Made by a program: the position numbers and the translations under genes. A DNA stretch of 7,561 bases from Neisseria lactamica (lineage in GTDB: Bacteria > Pseudomonadota > Gammaproteobacteria > Burkholderiales > Neisseriaceae): contig JUNU01000258.1 in the NCBI GenBank assembly GCA_001067655.1, forward strand, positions 1-7,561, in the 5' to 3' direction. The notes under the pieces were generated by a model that was not told the origin of the DNA, did no database searches, and was given only the letters and a program-made list of their open reading frames with translations. Below, piece by piece: positions 1 through 7,561 of the stretch (position 1 is its first letter; each line of letters begins with the position of its first letter).

Positions 1-1
1 T

Positions 2-13
2 TTCAGACGACCT
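2..13 (-). other. DNA uptake sequence variant; minus strand reads AGGTCGTCTGAA
   Basis: The + strand TTCAGACGACCT is the reverse complement of AGGTCGTCTGAA. That differs from the canonical GCCGTCTGAA core by one base and matches what I recall as the AG-mucDUS dialect. Confidence 0.6.
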
Positions 14-20
14 TATATAT

Positions 21-47
21 TGCGCTCCATCAGGGGCGCATATTTTT
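21..47 (+). terminator. Putative rho-independent terminator (probably for an upstream + strand transcript)
   Basis: tgcgctcc (21-28) pairs with ggggcgca (33-40): 8 bp with one G-T pair and a 4-nt loop atca. It is followed by tattttt. Confidence 0.45.
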
Positions 48-93: not shown

Positions 94-324
94 ATGTTTA
101 TTTTCTATACCGTCAATCCCGAACCCGTATCTTTCCCAAAAGCATACATCTTGAAAGTGTTCAGGGATAAAGACAACGAATCCCAATGCATCAAAACAGT
201 TTGTTTCCCTATCCGCAATCCGACTTTGAAACAAAAAACCGAAAACGAAGCGTATGAATACGGCAGATTGTTTGTAAAAGAACTGTTGGACAAGGAATGT
301 AACCGTGAAAGCCTTGGAAGATAA
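94..324 (+). CDS. Hypothetical small protein (76 aa) upstream of and overlapping the rep start
   Basis: ATG is preceded by GAAGGGG at 7-nt spacing. Composition looks globular, and the ORF overlaps the GTG 305 rep start by 20 nt. I recognise no family. Confidence 0.5.
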   Translation: MFIFYTVNPEPVSFPKAYILKVFRDKDNESQCIKTVCFPIRNPTLKQKTENEAYEYGRLFVKELLDKECNRESLGR

Positions 325-1648
325 AGCCGTGGCGGTGTCCGCGGACATGGCGGACGCGTCAGCGGACGGCGGGGCTGCGGCAACCGCCGAAGGCTGCCCC
401 CCTAGGCTAATAGGGGGGGACCAAAACAAAACCCCAAATCCGAAGGGTGCGGAAAAAACAGAAAACCAAGAATTCCAATTCGAGTATTTCAGCCATTTTG
501 TATCGGACGGCAAAGGCAGATTTATAGAAATACCGTTAAGGCGTGGCAGGGATGACGGAGCGTTCATAGACCAAATCACTTTCACGATACACGAAGATTC
601 CATGACGAAAGTAACCGGAAAGGGATTGGTTTCAGATACGGAATTCGTTGTTCAGTATAGCGAGCTGCTTGAAGAAATTTTGGGATTCGGCATTACCCAA
701 AAATTACCGTTCAAAGGTAAGTTTTTCTATAAAAGCTGTTACCAACTCGGACCCGATAACGTCGAATACGGAAAGGTCCACTATGGTGGTCAGCGAGAAA
801 CGATGTTGGTCGAATTGAACGGAACAGGCTGCATGGCGGCATTACCCGGTTGGGGAAACCGCCTACATGAATTCTTAAGTAAATGCGTCCGCCCGAAAAT
901 AACCCGTGTCGATGTAGCCCATGATTTTTTCAACGGCGAGTACACACCCGATCAGGCAATTTTAGACCACGATAACGGACATTACGACGTACACAATATG
1001 CGGCCAAAAAGCGAATGTCGTGGCACGGCATGGCGCAATGAAGACGGTAGCGGAAAAACCTTTTACATCGGCAAGCGTGGAAACTCAAAATTTACCCGTG
1101 TTTACGAGAAAGGCAGACAGTTCGGAGATGTTGACAGCCCTTGGGTCAGGTTTGAAACCGAATTCAGGGCGGGGGATATAGAAATCCCATTGGATATGCT
1201 GCTTTATCCTGGTTCGTATCTCGGCGGTGCATATCCGATTTGCAAGGCGATTTTCAAGACCGAAGCCAAGCGGATGGAAGCAAAAGTAGAAACCGTTAAT
1301 TTGACATTCGACCATAAGCTTTTCCATGCAAGGAATCAGGTCGGCAAGATGGTTAATTTCCTCCGCGATATAGGGTGGGACGATAGCAGGATAGTTGATG
1401 AGCTGGTGAAAGGCGTTGAAGGTTATCCCAAAGGTTTACAGCCTGAGCAATACGATTGCAGAAACCAAACGCAGAAATTCCAGTATATACACGAAGAACA
1501 GAAAGCCATTAACGCATTGAACATTGAAATACTGTTTGATGATTTGAATGAAGAGAAAGAAACCGCATTCCCCCAAGACAGGGAAAGGCAACACATCAAG
1601 GATATTGAGTACGAGGAACGTCAAATATCCGATTTTTTAAACAACTGA
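305..1648 (+). CDS. Rolling-circle replication initiation protein (Rep_trans / RstA-like phage replication initiator)
   Basis: 447-aa ORF with motifs typical of this family: IDQITFTIH, GGQRETMLVELNGTGC, RVDVAHDFF, FYIGKRGNSKFTRVYEKG and VRFETEFR. It is the first large gene of the phage module. GTG 305 has AAGGAA 7 nt upstream; the alternative ATG 347 has no clear SD. There is no other canonical in-frame start before 601. Confidence 0.9.
   Translation: MKALEDKAVAVSADMADASADGGAAATAEGCPPRLIGGDQNKTPNPKGAEKTENQEFQFEYFSHFVSDGKGRFIEIPLRRGRDDGAFIDQITFTIHEDSMTKVTGKGLVSDTEFVVQYSELLEEILGFGITQKLPFKGKFFYKSCYQLGPDNVEYGKVHYGGQRETMLVELNGTGCMAALPGWGNRLHEFLSKCVRPKITRVDVAHDFFNGEYTPDQAILDHDNGHYDVHNMRPKSECRGTAWRNEDGSGKTFYIGKRGNSKFTRVYEKGRQFGDVDSPWVRFETEFRAGDIEIPLDMLLYPGSYLGGAYPICKAIFKTEAKRMEAKVETVNLTFDHKLFHARNQVGKMVNFLRDIGWDDSRIVDELVKGVEGYPKGLQPEQYDCRNQTQKFQYIHEEQKAINALNIEILFDDLNEEKETAFPQDRERQHIKDIEYEERQISDFLNN
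397..418. repeat. C6/G7 homopolymer hairpin inside the 5' part of rep
   Basis: ccccccta (397-404) pairs with tagggggg (411-418), loop ggctaa. The G run is 7 long (413-419) and the C run is 6 long (397-402). Confidence 0.7.
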
Positions 1649-2499: not shown

Positions 2500-2810
2500 T
2501 GCAAATGGGTTATCAAGTCGGTCGTGTTTGCCATTTCACACACGAAGCGGCGACAAACGACGTGATGACCCGTGTAGTGCCGACAATAGACAAAGACGGG
2601 GTGCTGCATCACCCCGTTTTTAACGGCTCTACATGGCAGTATAACGAACAGCAAGTCAAACTGACCTTTCCCGATTGCGACCCGATGGAATATCAGAAGC
2701 TGGGTAAAGAGATAGGTTTGATGTGTGTTTCAATCGTCGCCACGGTATTTGTCGTCAACCTAATCTACAAATTCATATTATCCACGAGAGAAAAGAGTAA
2801 TGAAGAATGA
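2499..2810 (+). CDS. Hypothetical membrane-anchored protein (103 aa), possible minor virion or assembly protein
   Basis: TAATG stop/start overlap with the coat gene. C-terminal TM segment (GLMCVSIVATVFVVNLIYKFIL). It overlaps the next gene by 11 nt. Confidence 0.7.
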   Translation: MQMGYQVGRVCHFTHEAATNDVMTRVVPTIDKDGVLHHPVFNGSTWQYNEQQVKLTFPDCDPMEYQKLGKEIGLMCVSIVATVFVVNLIYKFILSTREKSNEE

Positions 2811-4581
2811 TACCCGAAGCAATGTTCATCATCGGCATACTGCCTTATGTCTTGCTCTGTCTGCTGCTTTATTCTCTGCTCCTGTAAGTGCAGAAGTAGG
2901 ACTTACCCCGCCGGCACAACATCAGGGGGCGGGTTTTCCGTCTGAGCAGGCCTTGAGACAAAAAGGATACGATCCGAAAACAGGCGTATGGCGCGTGCAA
3001 AGCCAAAACAACGGCAGACCGACCGTAACCAAGTCGGGCGATAACATCAAAGGTACGCAGTCTAAGACCGTAACCGCAACGGGCAATTATGGCGAGAAGG
3101 GAACGTTTAGGACGACGCAGACGCAGACTGTAAGCTCTTCAAAATTGCAGAATACTATAAATGGAGTTTGGGCAGGTGGTGCATTGGCAGCTGCAGTTGA
3201 TAAACATAGTGGTTTGATGGGAGCAAGAATTAGGTCAGGAGATTATAAAGGTGCTGTCGAAAGTGGTGTTTTAATGGCTGGTACCTTTGGAAATAATTTG
3301 TTTGGAGGATTTGCAGAGTCCTTGGGGAATATAGGACGTGGATTAGGTTTGATTGATAGCCCGTCTCCTCAAGATTTCAGACAAGCTGGAGACCGTTTTT
3401 ATCAATGGCAAATGCAGCAAGAAAAAAACGGCGACTTTTCCAAAGCCGTCGAAGCTGCCGCCGCTAAAAAAGCAGCGGAACAAGCCGCAAAAGCGGCCCA
3501 AGGCAACAAAGAATACAAAGAGGCAAAGGAACGTTCTAAAAAAGAGACTGTTTATCAGGTTGTTTTGGGCATAACACATATGGTCAATGGCAGACAAAAA
3601 TCGGAGAATAAATACATAGGTGCTTATACAAATAAGTTTGCTGACAATGCGGGTGCTTCATATGATAAAGATGGTAAGCAGAGGATTATTAAAAGTTCCC
3701 CTTTAGAGTCATATCTTCCCGGGTCGTGGTCGCCTAATTCGATTATTTATGCAAATTTGCAAGTTGTATCTGAAAGAACCCCGCCTCCTGAAACCGTTAC
3801 ACCTCAAGACATGATGTTGAATCAGCAAGACATCAAAGACATCCTGTCCCGTATGCTGAACAATCAACAGACCAATCATGCCGAATTGATGAATCAGTTG
3901 GCAAAAATTGGCGACGCAGTTGAGAAGTCTACCGAATCAAACCAATTCACGCCCATGACTGCCGATTCAGCACCCTACACACCGCAAGGCAGCAATACAC
4001 CGCAACAGACACGGTTTACACTTAACGCAGACGGCTCGGTTTCAACGTCTATTATTCCGCGTCCTGATCTGAAACCAAATTCCACGCTCGCGCCGACACG
4101 CAGCGAAATCATACCGACACCGAATAAAGGACAGAACACGCCAACAACACCCAACAGTCCGAATACACCTACAACACCCGATAGTCCGAATGCACCGACG
4201 ACACAGAATCAGCCGAATACACCTACAACGCCTGATACTCCGACAGGGCAACAAAATCAGAATCAAAACCAAGAGAATCAGAAGCAGGATTTTTGTCAAA
4301 AAAATCCGAATGCTGCTCAATGTATGCCGGGTGGCGATACGACCTATGAAGACATCGTCTTGCCTGAAAACACAATAGATTTGAGTTTCAGCCCTGAAAA
4401 CGTCTTCCAAACAGAAGGCGTTTGCCCGCAACCGAAAAGCGTGGATTTGGGCGCATTTGGGCAAGTCGAATTCAGCTATCAGCCGCTTTGCGACTTTGCC
4501 GCTAAATTGAGACCAGTCCTAATCATGATGACGATACTGACATGTGCATGGTTCGTCTATGGCGCATTGGAGGAGCTATGA
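2800..4581 (+). CDS. tspB: TspB-like adsorption / minor coat protein (pIII analog)
   Basis: 593 aa with a signal peptide (cleavage after VSA). It contains an Ala/Lys-rich helix region, a Pro/Thr/Asn-rich repeat linker and a Q/N-rich tract. The C-terminal domain is Cys-containing and ends in a membrane anchor (VLIMMTILTCAWFVYGAL). The gene sits between the coat gene and the pVI-like gene, as ORF6/TspB does in Neisseria Nf/MDA phages. Confidence 0.85.
   Translation: MKNDTRSNVHHRHTALCLALSAALFSAPVSAEVGLTPPAQHQGAGFPSEQALRQKGYDPKTGVWRVQSQNNGRPTVTKSGDNIKGTQSKTVTATGNYGEKGTFRTTQTQTVSSSKLQNTINGVWAGGALAAAVDKHSGLMGARIRSGDYKGAVESGVLMAGTFGNNLFGGFAESLGNIGRGLGLIDSPSPQDFRQAGDRFYQWQMQQEKNGDFSKAVEAAAAKKAAEQAAKAAQGNKEYKEAKERSKKETVYQVVLGITHMVNGRQKSENKYIGAYTNKFADNAGASYDKDGKQRIIKSSPLESYLPGSWSPNSIIYANLQVVSERTPPPETVTPQDMMLNQQDIKDILSRMLNNQQTNHAELMNQLAKIGDAVEKSTESNQFTPMTADSAPYTPQGSNTPQQTRFTLNADGSVSTSIIPRPDLKPNSTLAPTRSEIIPTPNKGQNTPTTPNSPNTPTTPDSPNAPTTQNQPNTPTTPDTPTGQQNQNQNQENQKQDFCQKNPNAAQCMPGGDTTYEDIVLPENTIDLSFSPENVFQTEGVCPQPKSVDLGAFGQVEFSYQPLCDFAAKLRPVLIMMTILTCAWFVYGALEEL
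4159..4239 (+). repeat. Three in-frame imperfect 27-bp tandem repeats (PNTPTTPDS / PNAPTTQNQ / PNTPTTPDT) in tspB
   Basis: Units lie at 4159-4185, 4186-4212 and 4213-4239. Units 1 and 3 differ at 3 of 27 positions. A degenerate copy lies just upstream (TPTTPNS). Confidence 0.8.
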
Positions 4582-4865: not shown

Positions 4866-6038
4866 ATGCTTTACCTATATACAGGCGTTCCCGGTGCGGG
4901 AAAAACATTGTATGCGGTTTCCAACCTTGTTAAACGCAAAGACTTTAAAGACCGTCCCATATTCGTGGACGGAATCAAAGACCTAGACCATGACAAAATA
5001 AACTACTTTGATATACCCGAAGGCGAAAGCATTCAGACATGGCCGAAGTGGGCGCCTCCGGGTGCGATTATCGTAGTTGACGAATGCCAACGAATATTCC
5101 GCCCACGTCCAAGCGGTTCGAAAGTACCCGACTACGTCGCCGAACTTGAAACACACCGACACCGTGGTCTTGATTTCATCTTGATAACCCAACATCCCCG
5201 CCTGATAGACGTCCATTTGCGCGGACTGATAGAACATCACACGCATTTAGGTAAGACCAATCTAGGGCTGCGCCGTAAGCTCGAATGGACGACAGGTGGC
5301 GCAAAAGACCCTGAAAGCAGGGCAAACATTAGGGAAGCTCTAATAAGCGTGTACAGGCTTGATAAAAGCGTGTACGGTCTGTATAAGTCCGCCGAAGTAC
5401 ACACCAAAATCAGGACGAAAAAAAGCAAACTTTTAATACTGTTCCCGCTCGCCCTATGCCTCGTAGGTTACGGAATATGGTCTTTTACTGGATTTTGGGG
5501 CAAATTCTCGGGCGAAGAAAAACAGGCGAAGACGGCAAGTACGACCCAAACCGCCCAAGCACAAACACAGCCGTCAGCCGTATCGGCAAGTGAGCCTGTA
5601 TCAAACGGGCAGTATCCGAAAGCCGAAACAAAACCCGAAGAACCAAAGAAACCACATTTGAGCGAAGAAGACTATCAGCCCCGTATCGCAGAGCGTCCTG
5701 AAACCGCCCCGATATACGACGGCATGAATAAAGCAGTTAAAGTCATGCCTTGGCCTGTCGCCTGTATTAAAGCAGAGAACCGCTGCACCTGTTACACAGA
5801 CCAAGGAACGAAGATAACCGAAATAGGCAAAAAAACCTGTCTGAACTACGTAAAAGACGGGCTGCCTTTTAACCCCTACAAAGTTCAAACCGCCGAAAAC
5901 GCCACACCGACGCATACAGCCTATACACCCGACGCCCCGCAGGTCTTGACAATGGGCGGTGCCAGCCCGCAAAATTTGATGTATGACGGATACAACGATA
6001 AAGCCTTGACGAATCAGGGTGGGAAAATTGGATTATGA
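4866..6038 (+). CDS. Zot-like / pI-like filamentous phage assembly ATPase
   Basis: Walker A GVPGAGKT at residues 7-14 and Walker B IIVVDECQ. There is a central TM segment (LLILFPLALCLVGYGIWSFTGFW), then a low-complexity linker and a Cys-containing C-terminal domain. GAGGGA RBS upstream. Confidence 0.92.
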   Translation: MLYLYTGVPGAGKTLYAVSNLVKRKDFKDRPIFVDGIKDLDHDKINYFDIPEGESIQTWPKWAPPGAIIVVDECQRIFRPRPSGSKVPDYVAELETHRHRGLDFILITQHPRLIDVHLRGLIEHHTHLGKTNLGLRRKLEWTTGGAKDPESRANIREALISVYRLDKSVYGLYKSAEVHTKIRTKKSKLLILFPLALCLVGYGIWSFTGFWGKFSGEEKQAKTASTTQTAQAQTQPSAVSASEPVSNGQYPKAETKPEEPKKPHLSEEDYQPRIAERPETAPIYDGMNKAVKVMPWPVACIKAENRCTCYTDQGTKITEIGKKTCLNYVKDGLPFNPYKVQTAENATPTHTAYTPDAPQVLTMGGASPQNLMYDGYNDKALTNQGGKIGL

Positions 6039-6226
6039 GCACATTAGATTTAATAAGGTTTATAACATCTCCTTTAGTTTGGTTTATTATTGGTTGGTAT
6101 TCTAGTAGGTCTAACACTGATAGAGGGGCAAAGGCTGGCTTTATTACAGGTTTTAAAATATTTATAGGTTTTTTAGCTTTTGAATTGTCATTAATAGGAA
6201 TTTATTACTTATCAGTGAATAATTAA
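6035..6226 (+). CDS. Small two-TM membrane protein (63 aa), AT-rich moron-like ORF
   Basis: ATGA overlap with the zot-like stop. Two hydrophobic segments (FITSPLVWFIIGWY and FITGFKIFIGFLAFELSLIGIYYL). By hand count 6041-6220 is about 29% GC, against about 48% in the preceding 60 nt of zot. Confidence 0.6.
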   Translation: MSTLDLIRFITSPLVWFIIGWYSSRSNTDRGAKAGFITGFKIFIGFLAFELSLIGIYYLSVNN

Positions 6227-6284
6227 GATACCTTTTCCCCTATCAATGAAGCTAAAAGGCGTAATTGATAGGGGAAAAGGTATC
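6227..6284. repeat. Perfect 21-bp inverted repeat (hairpin, 16-nt loop) immediately after the last morphogenesis ORF
   Basis: gataccttttcccctatcaat (6227-6247) and attgataggggaaaaggtatc (6264-6284) are exact reverse complements. No T-tract follows. Confidence 0.9.
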
Positions 6285-6404
6285 CACGGGGTGTGGGAAC
6301 TCCCGCTTCTTTGAATTTCAGCAATTTTATGTCTTCCGGCGACGTCTAAAAATTCAAAAATAGGCAAAAATCAGCTCAACCGGAGGCAATAAAATACCAA
6401 AGCC

Positions 6405-6452
6405 AAAACCCGCAAAACGTTTTAAAAAAGACGGTTTGCGGGTTTTTGTTTA
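6405..6452 (+). terminator. Rho-independent terminator (A-tract/T-tract flanked, potentially bidirectional)
   Basis: AAAACCCGCAAA (6405-6416) pairs with TTTGCGGGTTTT (6435-6446). Additional inner pairs form (cgt/acg), and a TTTTTGTTT tail follows. Confidence 0.7.
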
Positions 6453-6951
6453 TGCGCAAAACAAAGGCCCGGGCGGTTTAGGCAGCAAATCGACCAAAGT
6501 CAAAAACTGGACAAAAGAAATGCCGAATCGTCTGACCATCCTAAAGATTGAATATCATCATAGCCGCATAGCAGGCTGAATAAATAAGGAAAATGCAATG
6601 AATGTAATAGGATTGGATATTTCAAAAGACACCATAGACGTAACATTGATTACGGCCAAAGGCGAAATGGACTATATAAAAATCGGAAACAGTCATGAAG
6701 GTTTTGAAAAACTGATTGACTGGATAAAAACTAAGCGAGTTAGAAAAATTGCTATAAGCATGGAGGCAACAGGCGTTTATTACGAACAGGCGGCGGAATA
6801 CTTGAGCGCAGTCTATACCGTTTACGTCATCAATCCACTGAAAATCAAAGATTACGCAAAAAGCCAGTTCAGCCATACCAAAACAGACAAAGCAGATTCA
6901 AAGCTGATAGCCGATTATGCAAAACGGCATTTAGATAAATTGACACCGTTT

Positions 6952-6963
6952 AGGCCGTCTGAA
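6952..6963 (+). other. Neisseria DNA uptake sequence, 12-mer AGGCCGTCTGAA (canonical 10-mer core GCCGTCTGAA)
   Basis: Exact GCCGTCTGAA at 6954-6963, preceded by AG, inside the recombinase N-domain coding sequence. Confidence 0.8.
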
Positions 6964-7520
6964 AATCCAACGTTGTATAAACTGATAAACCTGCTTCATC
7001 AACTCAAGCAACAGAAGCACGAAAGCCAAAACAGGCTGCATACCGCAAGACCTGTTTATACGATCAATCCACGAAACAATCATTCTGCTGCTTTCAAAGA
7101 AAATAGATGAAACATACAAACGAATAGACAGTACGATTAAGCAGCAAGAAAACTTGAATGCCAAGTATCAGAACCTGCAAACTATACCCGCCATAGGCAA
7201 AGATACCGCTGCAATCTTACTTAGACACCTGACGGATAAAACCTTCAGAACAGCAAACCAATTCGTATCATTCGCCGGATTAAGTCCCAAAATTGAACAG
7301 TCTGGCAGCAGCGTGAATAAAAAAGGCAGATTGAGCAGATACGGACATCGACAAATAAAACGCGCCTTGTTCATGCCCGCTTTGGTTGCCTATCGGATAA
7401 ACGCATTTCCGCAATTGGTCAAAAACTTGGAAGCGGCCAAAAAACCGAAGATGGTCGTAATAGTCGCCATAATGCGTAAACTCGCAAAAATAGCCTACTA
7501 CATCTATAAGAGACCTTTGC

Positions 7521-7550
7521 AAAATTCCCCAAAATCCCCTAAATTCCCAC
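7521..7550 (+). repeat. Three tandem imperfect 10-bp repeats carrying ATTCCC / ATCCCC motifs (dRS3 half-site-like)
   Basis: aaaattcccc / aaaatcccct / aaattcccac at 7521-7530, 7531-7540 and 7541-7550. ATTCCC occurs at 7524-7529 and 7543-7548. They lie at the extreme 3' end of the recombinase reading frame. Confidence 0.6.
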
Positions 7551-7561
7551 CAAGACATTTA

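Follow-up and report, generated by a model that had tools for sequence, protein, structure and literature searches.

The 7,561-nt stretch analyzed here (hereafter the window; contig JUNU01000258.1 of the Neisseria lactamica assembly GCA_001067655.1) is an inovirus-type (filamentous) prophage of a Neisseriaceae host. The roughly 160 nt beside the start codon of its IS110-family recombinase gene very probably encode a bridge RNA of the IS110 type, which would act as the integration guide of the phage. An earlier reading, made from the letters alone (the sequence-only reading), had placed a bridge RNA locus upstream of this filamentous-phage recombinase at 6285-6597; structure and guide covariation supported such a locus, but only over 6439-6597. 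In the predicted RNA, a 5′ hairpin precedes two stem-loops, each with an internal loop, the first bearing a left and a right target guide (LTG and RTG) and the second a left and a right donor guide (LDG and RDG). Its structure is conserved and covaries, its guides covary with the sites that they match under fixed rules of position and strand, a CT core lies at the sites, and the recombinase is homologous to that of IS621. By analogy with IS621, we infer that the RNA is produced, has the ends given here, and is bound and used in catalysis by the recombinase.

The sequence-only reading had noted that about 310 nt without an open reading frame (ORF) of 60 aa or more precede the recombinase gene, which was borne out: between the end of a small ORF at 6226 and the recombinase ATG at 6598 we found only mechanical ORFs of 47-51 aa. 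The closest database relatives of the window, the circular salivary inovirus genomes OR148974, OR148975, and OR148969, matched positions 6406-7510 at 78-80% DNA identity. Conservation at the DNA level therefore begins ~190 nt upstream of the ATG, in sequence lacking any such ORF. The upstream regions of homologues could be aligned from the hairpin at ~6405 to the ATG even where the recombinases shared 43-62% protein identity. Folding and alignment with related prophages, which the same reading had suggested as a check, did reveal covariation. When 21 diverse sequences were aligned with MAFFT, independently of any model, RNAalifold derived a consensus of 17 pairs, 15 of which showed at least one compensatory double change. 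The fold of window 6400-6600 (-54.6 kcal/mol, z -3.2) was matched by none of 200 dinucleotide shuffles.

In 155 loci, drawn from genomes, IMG/VR, and metagenomes, a covariance model (R1) built from this alignment and consensus had a single match that lay directly 5′ of the recombinase gene and shared its strand. The matches ended at ATG+3 and persisted down to ~41% recombinase protein identity; that in the window spanned 6439-6601 (+) with 137.5 bits (E 1.4e-25). In the first set, which comprised 65 distinct sequences, standard pairs filled 97.1% of the cells, against 79% after shuffling and 14-40% when the partners were slid, and the covariation score was 0.525 versus 0.18; this alignment was fitted to R1, and the figure of 15 out of 17 pairs is the less biased of the two. 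Changes on both sides were seen in all 10 pairs of the basal stem and all three of the apical stem, and the inner stem of the donor loop covaried too. The 5′ segment was assessed by folding each sequence individually, and column-wise pair counts were dropped because the model-fitted alignment was out of structural register there. Of its 62 distinct versions, nearly all folded as a hairpin (mean -11.4 kcal/mol, mean z -3.2), with stems unrelated in sequence (GGGUUUUUGUUU/AAACAAAGGCCC, CGGCAAAGG/CCUUUGCCG, and GUCAG.GG/CCCUGAC, for example) around a conserved loop motif.

To map the ends of the phage, we set the circular genomes (L001-L003) against copies integrated within long contigs (L005-L008, L011-L013, L020, and L024). 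In intact relatives, the right end of the prophage reads ..TTGACA-N16-..ATATCATCT and lies ~140 nt downstream of the recombinase stop codon, and the junction of the circle is ATATCATCT|TATATATTGC. The host flank on the left is ..AAAGGYCGTCTGAA-loop-TTCAGACGRCCT| and that on the right |TTTT.., so the target is the boundary between stem and T-run of an inverted DNA-uptake-sequence (DUS) terminator, with CT (or CTT) common to phage and host. The phage left end was abutted by the host sequence TTTCAGACGACCT in L005, L007, L011, and L012, and by a GACGGCC variant in L024 and L008. CT was present at every junction, and every RTG ended in AG.

The donor guides spell out the two phage ends. The LDG repeats what the top strand reads at the right end (ATATCATC, followed by T). 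Among 89 loci that extended far enough downstream, 80 carried its 8-mer plus T exactly, ~1.1 kb downstream; the LDG itself served as the query here, but the positions coincided with the ends mapped independently by homology. More than 12 LDG variants covaried with the right end, such as AGUAGCAUC with AGTAGCATCT, AAUACCAUC with TATACCATCT, and CUUGGUAUC with CTTGGTATCT. In reverse complement, the RDG reads CT followed by 3-5 nt of the left end, the only end that the window offers for comparison with its donor guides.

For the right target guide, the right end was placed by the donor guide, and the host flank was therefore independent of the RTG. Across 93 loci (36 unique guide/flank pairs, 27 distinct RTGs), the five bases that follow the CT core in each flank agreed with the reverse complement of that locus's RTG at 4.5 positions, compared with 1.72 ± 0.22 in class shuffles, none of 20,000 reaching the observed value. 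Examples are CGAAAAG with CT|TTTCG, GGGGGAG with CT|CCCCC, AAAGCAG with CT|GCTTT, UGACGAG with CT|CGTCA, and GUUUCAG with CT|GAAAC. For the left target guide, the left end was placed by the conserved phage-end motif, and 18 LTG classes matched 5.55 of seven positions versus 3.99 ± 0.21 when shuffled (0/20,000 as good). One near-isogenic pair illustrates the correspondence: L006 has the guide AAACGUCC and the site AAACGTCCT, while L007 has AACGACC and GACGACCT. In the window, the LTG matches CGACC of the left half-site. Throughout, the 5′ guides (8-9 nt) are same-sense with the site, as for bottom-strand pairing, and the 3′ guides (4-7 nt) are complementary to its top strand.

The target guides of the window (LTG AAAUCGACC, RTG ACAAAAG) specify ..CGACCT|TTTGT, the 3′ edge of an inverted-DUS terminator (TTTCAGACGACCT|TTTT). 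Since 2005, Neisseria filamentous prophages, including the disease-associated MDA-φ, have reportedly been understood to insert at CT inside dRS3 repeats by means of an IS110-family transposase. The sequence-only reading had accordingly envisaged a guide that specifies dRS3, and two internal loops matching dRS3 and the circle junction. The donor loop does match the junction, and the guides of the Nf1/MDA relatives do match dRS3, but the guides of this phage specify an inverted-DUS terminator; dRS3 (ATTCCC-N8-GGGAAT) as the target of the window is ruled out by the left flank TTTCAGACGACCT and by relatives that sit in DUS terminators. Use of dRS3 was confirmed only for a clade of 60% identity from N. 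meningitidis and N. gonorrhoeae (L009, L010, L104-L126, and L162). There, the left attachment site (attL) reads GATTCCCGCCT|TATATGATGC and the right one (attR) AACATATCATCT|GCGCGGGAAT, and the target is therefore an intact dRS3 cut at its central CT. The guides of this clade, LTG AAAUCCCGC and RTG CGCGUAG, face the site ATTCCCGCCT|GCGCGGGAAT; CGCGUAG pairs with CTGCGCG through one G-U pair and has an exact match in L118 (CT|ACGCG). The phage attachment site (attP) of Nf1 is ..CAACATATCATCT|TATATGATGC.., and Nf1 is known to target dRS3 (ATTCCCRCCTRCGCGGRAAK), with published end primers that agree with our mapped junctions (PMC7058167). Related phages with other guides sit in correspondingly different sites, which for the Nf1/MDA type include dRS3.

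Table 1. Features of the window, with the predicted bridge RNA and its parts listed before the surrounding elements.
Feature	Position	Strand	Remark
Predicted bridge RNA, ~160 nt	6439-6597	+	Beside recombinase ATG; covariation, guide matches
5′ stem-loop	6439-6471	+	13-bp hairpin (CGGGUUUUUGUUU / AUGCGCA loop / AAACAAAGGCCCG)
Target-binding stem-loop	6472-6532	+	Basal stem 6472-6484 / 6521-6532; apical hairpin 6498-6508
Left target guide (LTG)	6487-6495	+	AAAUCGACC; 5′ side of loop 1
Right target guide (RTG)	6511-6517	+	ACAAAAG; 3′ side of loop 1
Donor-binding loop	6547-6590	+	Inner hairpin AGCC-GCAUAGCA-GGCU, 6562-6577
Left donor guide (LDG)	6551-6559	+	AAUAUCAUC; 5′ side of loop 2
Right donor guide (RDG)	6579-6588	+	AAUAAAUAAG; 3′ side of loop 2
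IS110-family recombinase gene (DEDD and Ser domains)	6598-7512	+	Inactivated: 2-nt deletion at ~7047-7048, last ~13 codons lost
Host left half-site (left target, LT, plus CT core)	1-13	+	TTTCAGACGACCT; right arm of inverted-DUS terminator
Phage left end (right-donor half, RD)	14-23	+	TATATATTGC; homology to circular phages begins here
Replication initiator	305-1648		
Small coat-like ORFs	in window		
Large adsorption-type protein	2800-4581		
Zot-like assembly ATPase	4866-6038		
GC hairpin (GTGGGA AC TCCCGC) and T-run	6288-6306	+	Terminator-like per scan; outside bridge RNA
Long terminator-like hairpin	6405-6446	+	Followed by UUUUUGUUU
Left terminal inverted repeat and leader of IS5-family insertion sequence	7509-7561	+	Identical sequence heads complete insertion sequence in L024

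We propose that the RNA would be made from the double-stranded replicative form and would bind the phage DEDD/Ser recombinase. Its second internal loop would pair with the phage attachment site ..AATATCATCT|TATATAT.. and its first with the host site. In each loop, the 5′ side would pair with the left half-site's bottom strand and the 3′ side with the top strand across the CT core and right half-site, and recombination at the CT core would insert the whole ~7.5-kb circle.

This scheme follows the IS621 bridge RNA and recombinase, described by Durrant et al. in 2024 (PMC11208160) and reportedly also by Hiraizumi et al. in the same year. The 177-nt IS621 bridge RNA sequence that we used was confirmed at 100% identity in E. 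coli genomes (copy L223). The recombinase of the window belongs to the IS110 family with DEDD and Ser domains, as the sequence-only reading had it (PF01548, DEDD_Tnp_IS110, E 2.7e-25; PF02371, Transposase_20, E 5.6e-22). Once repaired in frame, it aligned over its full length with the IS621 recombinase (8wt6, E 3.1e-44) and with that of ISCro4 (9t56, E 1.4e-47, residues 2-305). ISCro4 (PDB 9t56), its best relative of solved structure, is an insertion sequence that we compared by recombinase alone. In the IS621 RNA, too, a 5′ hairpin is followed by two stem-loops with internal loops, its 5′ guide sides being directed to the bottom strand over 8-9 nt and its 3′ sides to the top strand over 4-7 nt (PMC11208160). 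In both systems, the recombinases are homologous and the RNA lies directly 5′ of the coding sequence on the same strand. As in IS621, loop 1 of the phage RNA is variable and target-specific, loop 2 is conserved and donor-specific, and the core is CT. The LDG matches through the core C and mismatches the T in both (UAUCAUC-A in the phage, ACAGUAUC-A in IS621), AAGG follows the right donor guide, the targets are of repeat type (REP for IS621, DUS terminators or dRS3 for the phages), and a sigma-70 promoter is assembled across the circle junction, as in IS110-family circles.

The two systems also differ. The mobile unit is an inovirus genome of ~7.5 kb rather than a 1.3-kb insertion sequence, and the phage RNA is internal, ~6.4 kb from the left end, whereas that of IS621 lies in the terminal non-coding end; the layout of a compact IS110 element (1.2-1.5 kb, RNA in the terminal left end) was not found, the RNA lying ~1.1 kb from the right end. 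Unlike in IS621, the junction promoter faces the replication genes and not the RNA, the RNA is ~160 nt long versus 177 nt, and the left target guide lacks pairing with the core T, or with any of the core in the dRS3 clade.

Closer to the window stand the Nf1/MDA-φ prophages, of the Nf and MDA-φ kind reportedly described by Kawai et al. and Bille et al. in 2005. They carry a replication initiator, coat genes, a Zot-like gene, and an IS110 recombinase (60% identity) in the same order, have the same RNA upstream (L104-L126, 129-131 bits), and are integrated at CT inside a repeat; they differ in targeting dRS3, whereas the window clade targets inverted-DUS terminators. The seekRNA of the IS1111 group, said by Siddiquee et al. 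in 2024 to lie downstream of the coding sequence in elements with long subterminal inverted repeats, shares the RNA-guided DEDD recombinase and two guide-bearing loops, but the phage RNA lies upstream. R1 had no match in the ~140 nt downstream of the coding sequence in intact relatives, where a terminator hairpin and the junction promoter's -35 are located. CTX-φ, also a filamentous phage with site-specific chromosomal integration, relies on the host tyrosine recombinases (XerCD/dif) and a folded single-stranded attP, while the Neisseria phage carries its own recombinase and a predicted RNA guide.

Several observations weigh against the assignment of a bridge RNA. The best R1 match in the IS621 locus runs collinearly along that element's RNA, with the basal and apical stems, both target guides, and the donor guides in order, which lends weak support, but its score is non-significant (5.8 bits, E 0.87); membership at the RNA level is thus shown by architecture and guide logic, not by profile score. 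Likewise, the RNA region had no significant match to an Rfam family, and scans of window 6000-6700 and of L012 detected no sigma-70-like promoter on the + strand upstream of the RNA. By eye, -10-like hexamers (TATAAT, or TATACT with an upstream TG) stand 5-10 nt before the 5′ hairpin in distant clades; in the window clade we saw nothing convincing of this kind. The terminator-like hairpin at 6405-6446 lies directly 5′ of the RNA and overlaps its 5′ hairpin, which obscures the start and biogenesis of the RNA. RNAalifold predicts no basal stem closing the donor loop, and the stems proposed by eye, CCU/AGG and CAU/AUG, were inconsistent across clades. The left guide is short, with five contiguous matches in the window, and fits poorly in L140, L142, L211, and L108. 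In the dRS3 clade it is shifted by one register away from the core relative to the DUS clade, ending one base before the core C instead of including it. Alignments A4 and A5 are model-fitted, and many loci are related prophages and not independent events, which the class-level shuffles mitigate but do not remove. Finally, with its recombinase broken and attR missing, the copy in the window is silent on activity.

If the conserved 160 nt served solely as promoter and 5′ leader for the recombinase mRNA, exerting translational or attenuation control with no guide function, it would be natural that the element abuts the ATG, that its 3′ guide overlaps the Shine-Dalgarno sequence, that no terminator separates it from the coding sequence, and that the competition between the hairpins at 6405-6446 and 6439-6471 resembles an attenuator. 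We consider this very unlikely. In a leader, loop bases would not vary together with each prophage's host flank and with the ends of the phage itself, nor would they obey the IS621 rule of side and strand, and our scan found no promoter consensus inside the element; a regulatory role can coexist with guide function rather than replace it. It is very improbable that the region is instead a cis-acting phage DNA element (a packaging signal, minus-strand origin, or recombination site) acting as single-stranded hairpins. Such hairpins are typical of the intergenic regions downstream of inovirus morphogenesis genes, as in the Ff phages, and a perfect one with 21-bp arms lies just upstream at 6227-6284; the element, however, goes with the recombinase gene and not with the phage backbone, being present where the surrounding phage genes differ. 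The attachment site was mapped elsewhere, and the loops encode the sites in the two-strand pattern of a bridge RNA. A cis-acting DNA function may well apply to 6227-6306, outside the RNA.

That many loci are related prophages at inherited sites, and that the alignments are model-fitted, would also be compatible with guide-like matches that are historical by-products, such as attachment-site copies left by past recombination or shared ancestry, without functional pairing. This we find hardly credible, given that 27 right guides each match their own flank and that class-level shuffles never reached the observed value. Duplication would not yield 3′ guides that are reverse-complementary beside 5′ guides that are same-sense, and three copies on one genome contig (L011, L013, and L020) occupy different sites.

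The bridge RNA reading gives the site choice of the Nf/MDA-φ phages, unexplained since 2005, a specific and testable mechanism, namely a phage-encoded bridge RNA that spells both sites. It would mean that viruses use bridge recombinases as integrases carrying ~6 kb of cargo, it adds inverted-DUS terminators as a second natural target class, and it provides re-programmed guides in a natural series, with their insertion sites known, from which guide rules can be learned. The mechanism itself is known; what sets this case apart is its use as a viral integrase, together with a new target class and the natural re-programmed guide series. Published accounts attribute the site choice of Nf phages to the transposase alone (PMC7058167), and in Supplementary Table 5 of Durrant et al. 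the column 'Detected Bridge RNA End' is empty for the ISfinder entries ISNgo2 and ISNgo3 (PMC11208160); the ISNgo3 protein is that of L010. Full-text literature searches, of incomplete coverage, returned no paper linking bridge RNAs with inoviruses, Nf phages, or MDA phages, and the main texts of two Neisseria transcriptome papers contain no mention of such an RNA at this locus.

Guide variation among relatives yielded further observations. The LTG versions ACGACC and ACGGCC mostly matched host flanks TTCAGACGACCT or TTCAGACGGCCT (L007/L011/L012 vs L024/L008/L147/L154), with one-mismatch exceptions in L082, L156, and L179. We take these versions to be two 'dialects' of the Neisseriaceae DUS, and from the sequences the left guide of the phage seems to track the dialect of the host. 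L011, L013 (=L182), and L020 are three closely related prophages on one Neisseria contig of a metagenome-assembled genome, at three different terminator sites (polylysogeny; contigs BNJT01002625 / CAKAEP010000002), where the lengths of guide homopolymers look unreliable in the assembly. In L140, L142, and L211, the right flank fits the right guide and the left flank fits the left guide poorly; in L108, possibly a mosaic of two prophages, the right flank likewise fits its guide and the left flank has no fit to the left guide. Such poor left fits may reflect half-matched or off-target insertion. A second, different bridge RNA locus (LTG ACAAACCAC, RTG UGACGAG, flank CT|CGTCAAT) was seen at L123 4800-4956 (-) and L124 1-153 (-), inverted beside an Nf1-type prophage on contigs of gonococcal type, which places two RNA-guided modules with different targets in one region.

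The circle junction carries a near-consensus sigma-70 promoter, TTGACA-18-TATATT (11/12; L001 2541-2570), that faces the replication genes. Its -10 half corresponds to window 14-21, and every clade has kept its -35 at a constant spacing from the CT. Integration separates the -35 from the -10, so this promoter may drive the downstream replication module only while the phage is circular. In L005 from N. iguanae (2793-3090), three copies of the left end TATATATTGCGCTCC.. lie in a stretch of ~250 nt at the left junction, which suggests a partial tandem duplication or repeated recombination there.

Taken jointly, these features can be read as a pair of bridge RNA and recombinase that filamentous phages of Neisseriaceae have captured as a self-programmable integrase under phage-specific regulation. 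Such a system would combine fast guide diversification, a split junction promoter, competition between terminator and 5′ hairpin that decides whether a functional guide forms, and an overlap of the RDG with the ribosome-binding site that couples RNA folding to recombinase translation. We offer this composite only tentatively and think it somewhat more apt to fail than to hold in full. At least 27 right guides occur, and the left guides follow the DUS dialect (ACGACC vs ACGGCC) or switch to dRS3. The RDG overlaps the recombinase Shine-Dalgarno sequence AAGGA at 6586-6590. If the composite reading is true, guide diversification would allow related phages to settle in separate copies of a repeat and share a genome.

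In the window itself, the recombinase frame is shifted by a 2-nt deletion at 7046-7049 (CGC--AAGAC versus CGCAAAAGAC or CGCTAAAGAT in seven close relatives), so that, judged from the DNA, the gene is a pseudogene or the deletion a sequencing error; a programmed frameshift is ruled out by the intact frame in the same seven relatives. Homology to all other recombinase genes ends at 7512. An IS5-family element replaces the last ~13 recombinase codons, the ~140-nt right non-coding end, and attR. The complete insertion sequence in L024 (15664-16879, - strand) has the inverted repeat GAGACCTTTGCAAAAT at both ends and an ORF with DDE_Tnp_1 (E 4.6e-23) and DUF772. The window's right edge is thereby ruled out as the phage end, its last ~50 nt being an IS5-family terminal inverted repeat, and the short matches to right-edge sequence listed in the sequence-only reading are irrelevant, since 7509-7561 belongs to this unrelated element. 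That the window ends at this repeat probably reflects a break of the assembly or of the prophage call there. This copy is decayed, and its module is probably dead, with a frameshift in the recombinase and an insertion sequence in place of the right end; the RNA sequence itself is intact.

In the remaining non-coding sequence upstream of the RNA (6285-6438), a terminator-like GC hairpin is followed by a spacer specific to the lineage and then by another terminator-like hairpin. A near-palindrome at 6295-6304 that had been noted by eye is real (GGGAACTCCC), but it forms part of the hairpin at 6288-6306, which is conserved in L001-L003, L006, L007, and L024 and stands outside the bridge RNA. The stem-loop previously proposed at 6405-6446 is real as well, with arms AAAACCCGCAAAACG / CGGTTTGCGGGTTTT followed by a T-run and compensatory changes (CCCGCAAA/TTTGCGGG vs CCTGTAAA/TTTACAGG); by its predicted structure it looks like the intrinsic terminator of the upstream operon. 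The weaker stem-loop proposed at 6445-6465 is present as the inner part of the 13-bp hairpin at 6439-6471. The 3′ arm and U-run of the hairpin at 6405-6446 share 8 nt with the 5′ arm of that at 6439-6471, and the two folds are therefore mutually exclusive. This overlap may represent insulation, or an attenuation switch between read-through from the operon and a correctly folded guide. Further upstream, 6227-6284 forms a perfect inverted repeat (21-bp arms, 16-nt loop) that immediately follows the last ORF for morphogenesis; an Rfam scan of the whole window (E up to 10) returned only chance microRNA-type matches on this hairpin. L001 has a hairpin of other sequence at the equivalent position, and the inverted repeat is a candidate packaging signal or minus-strand origin.

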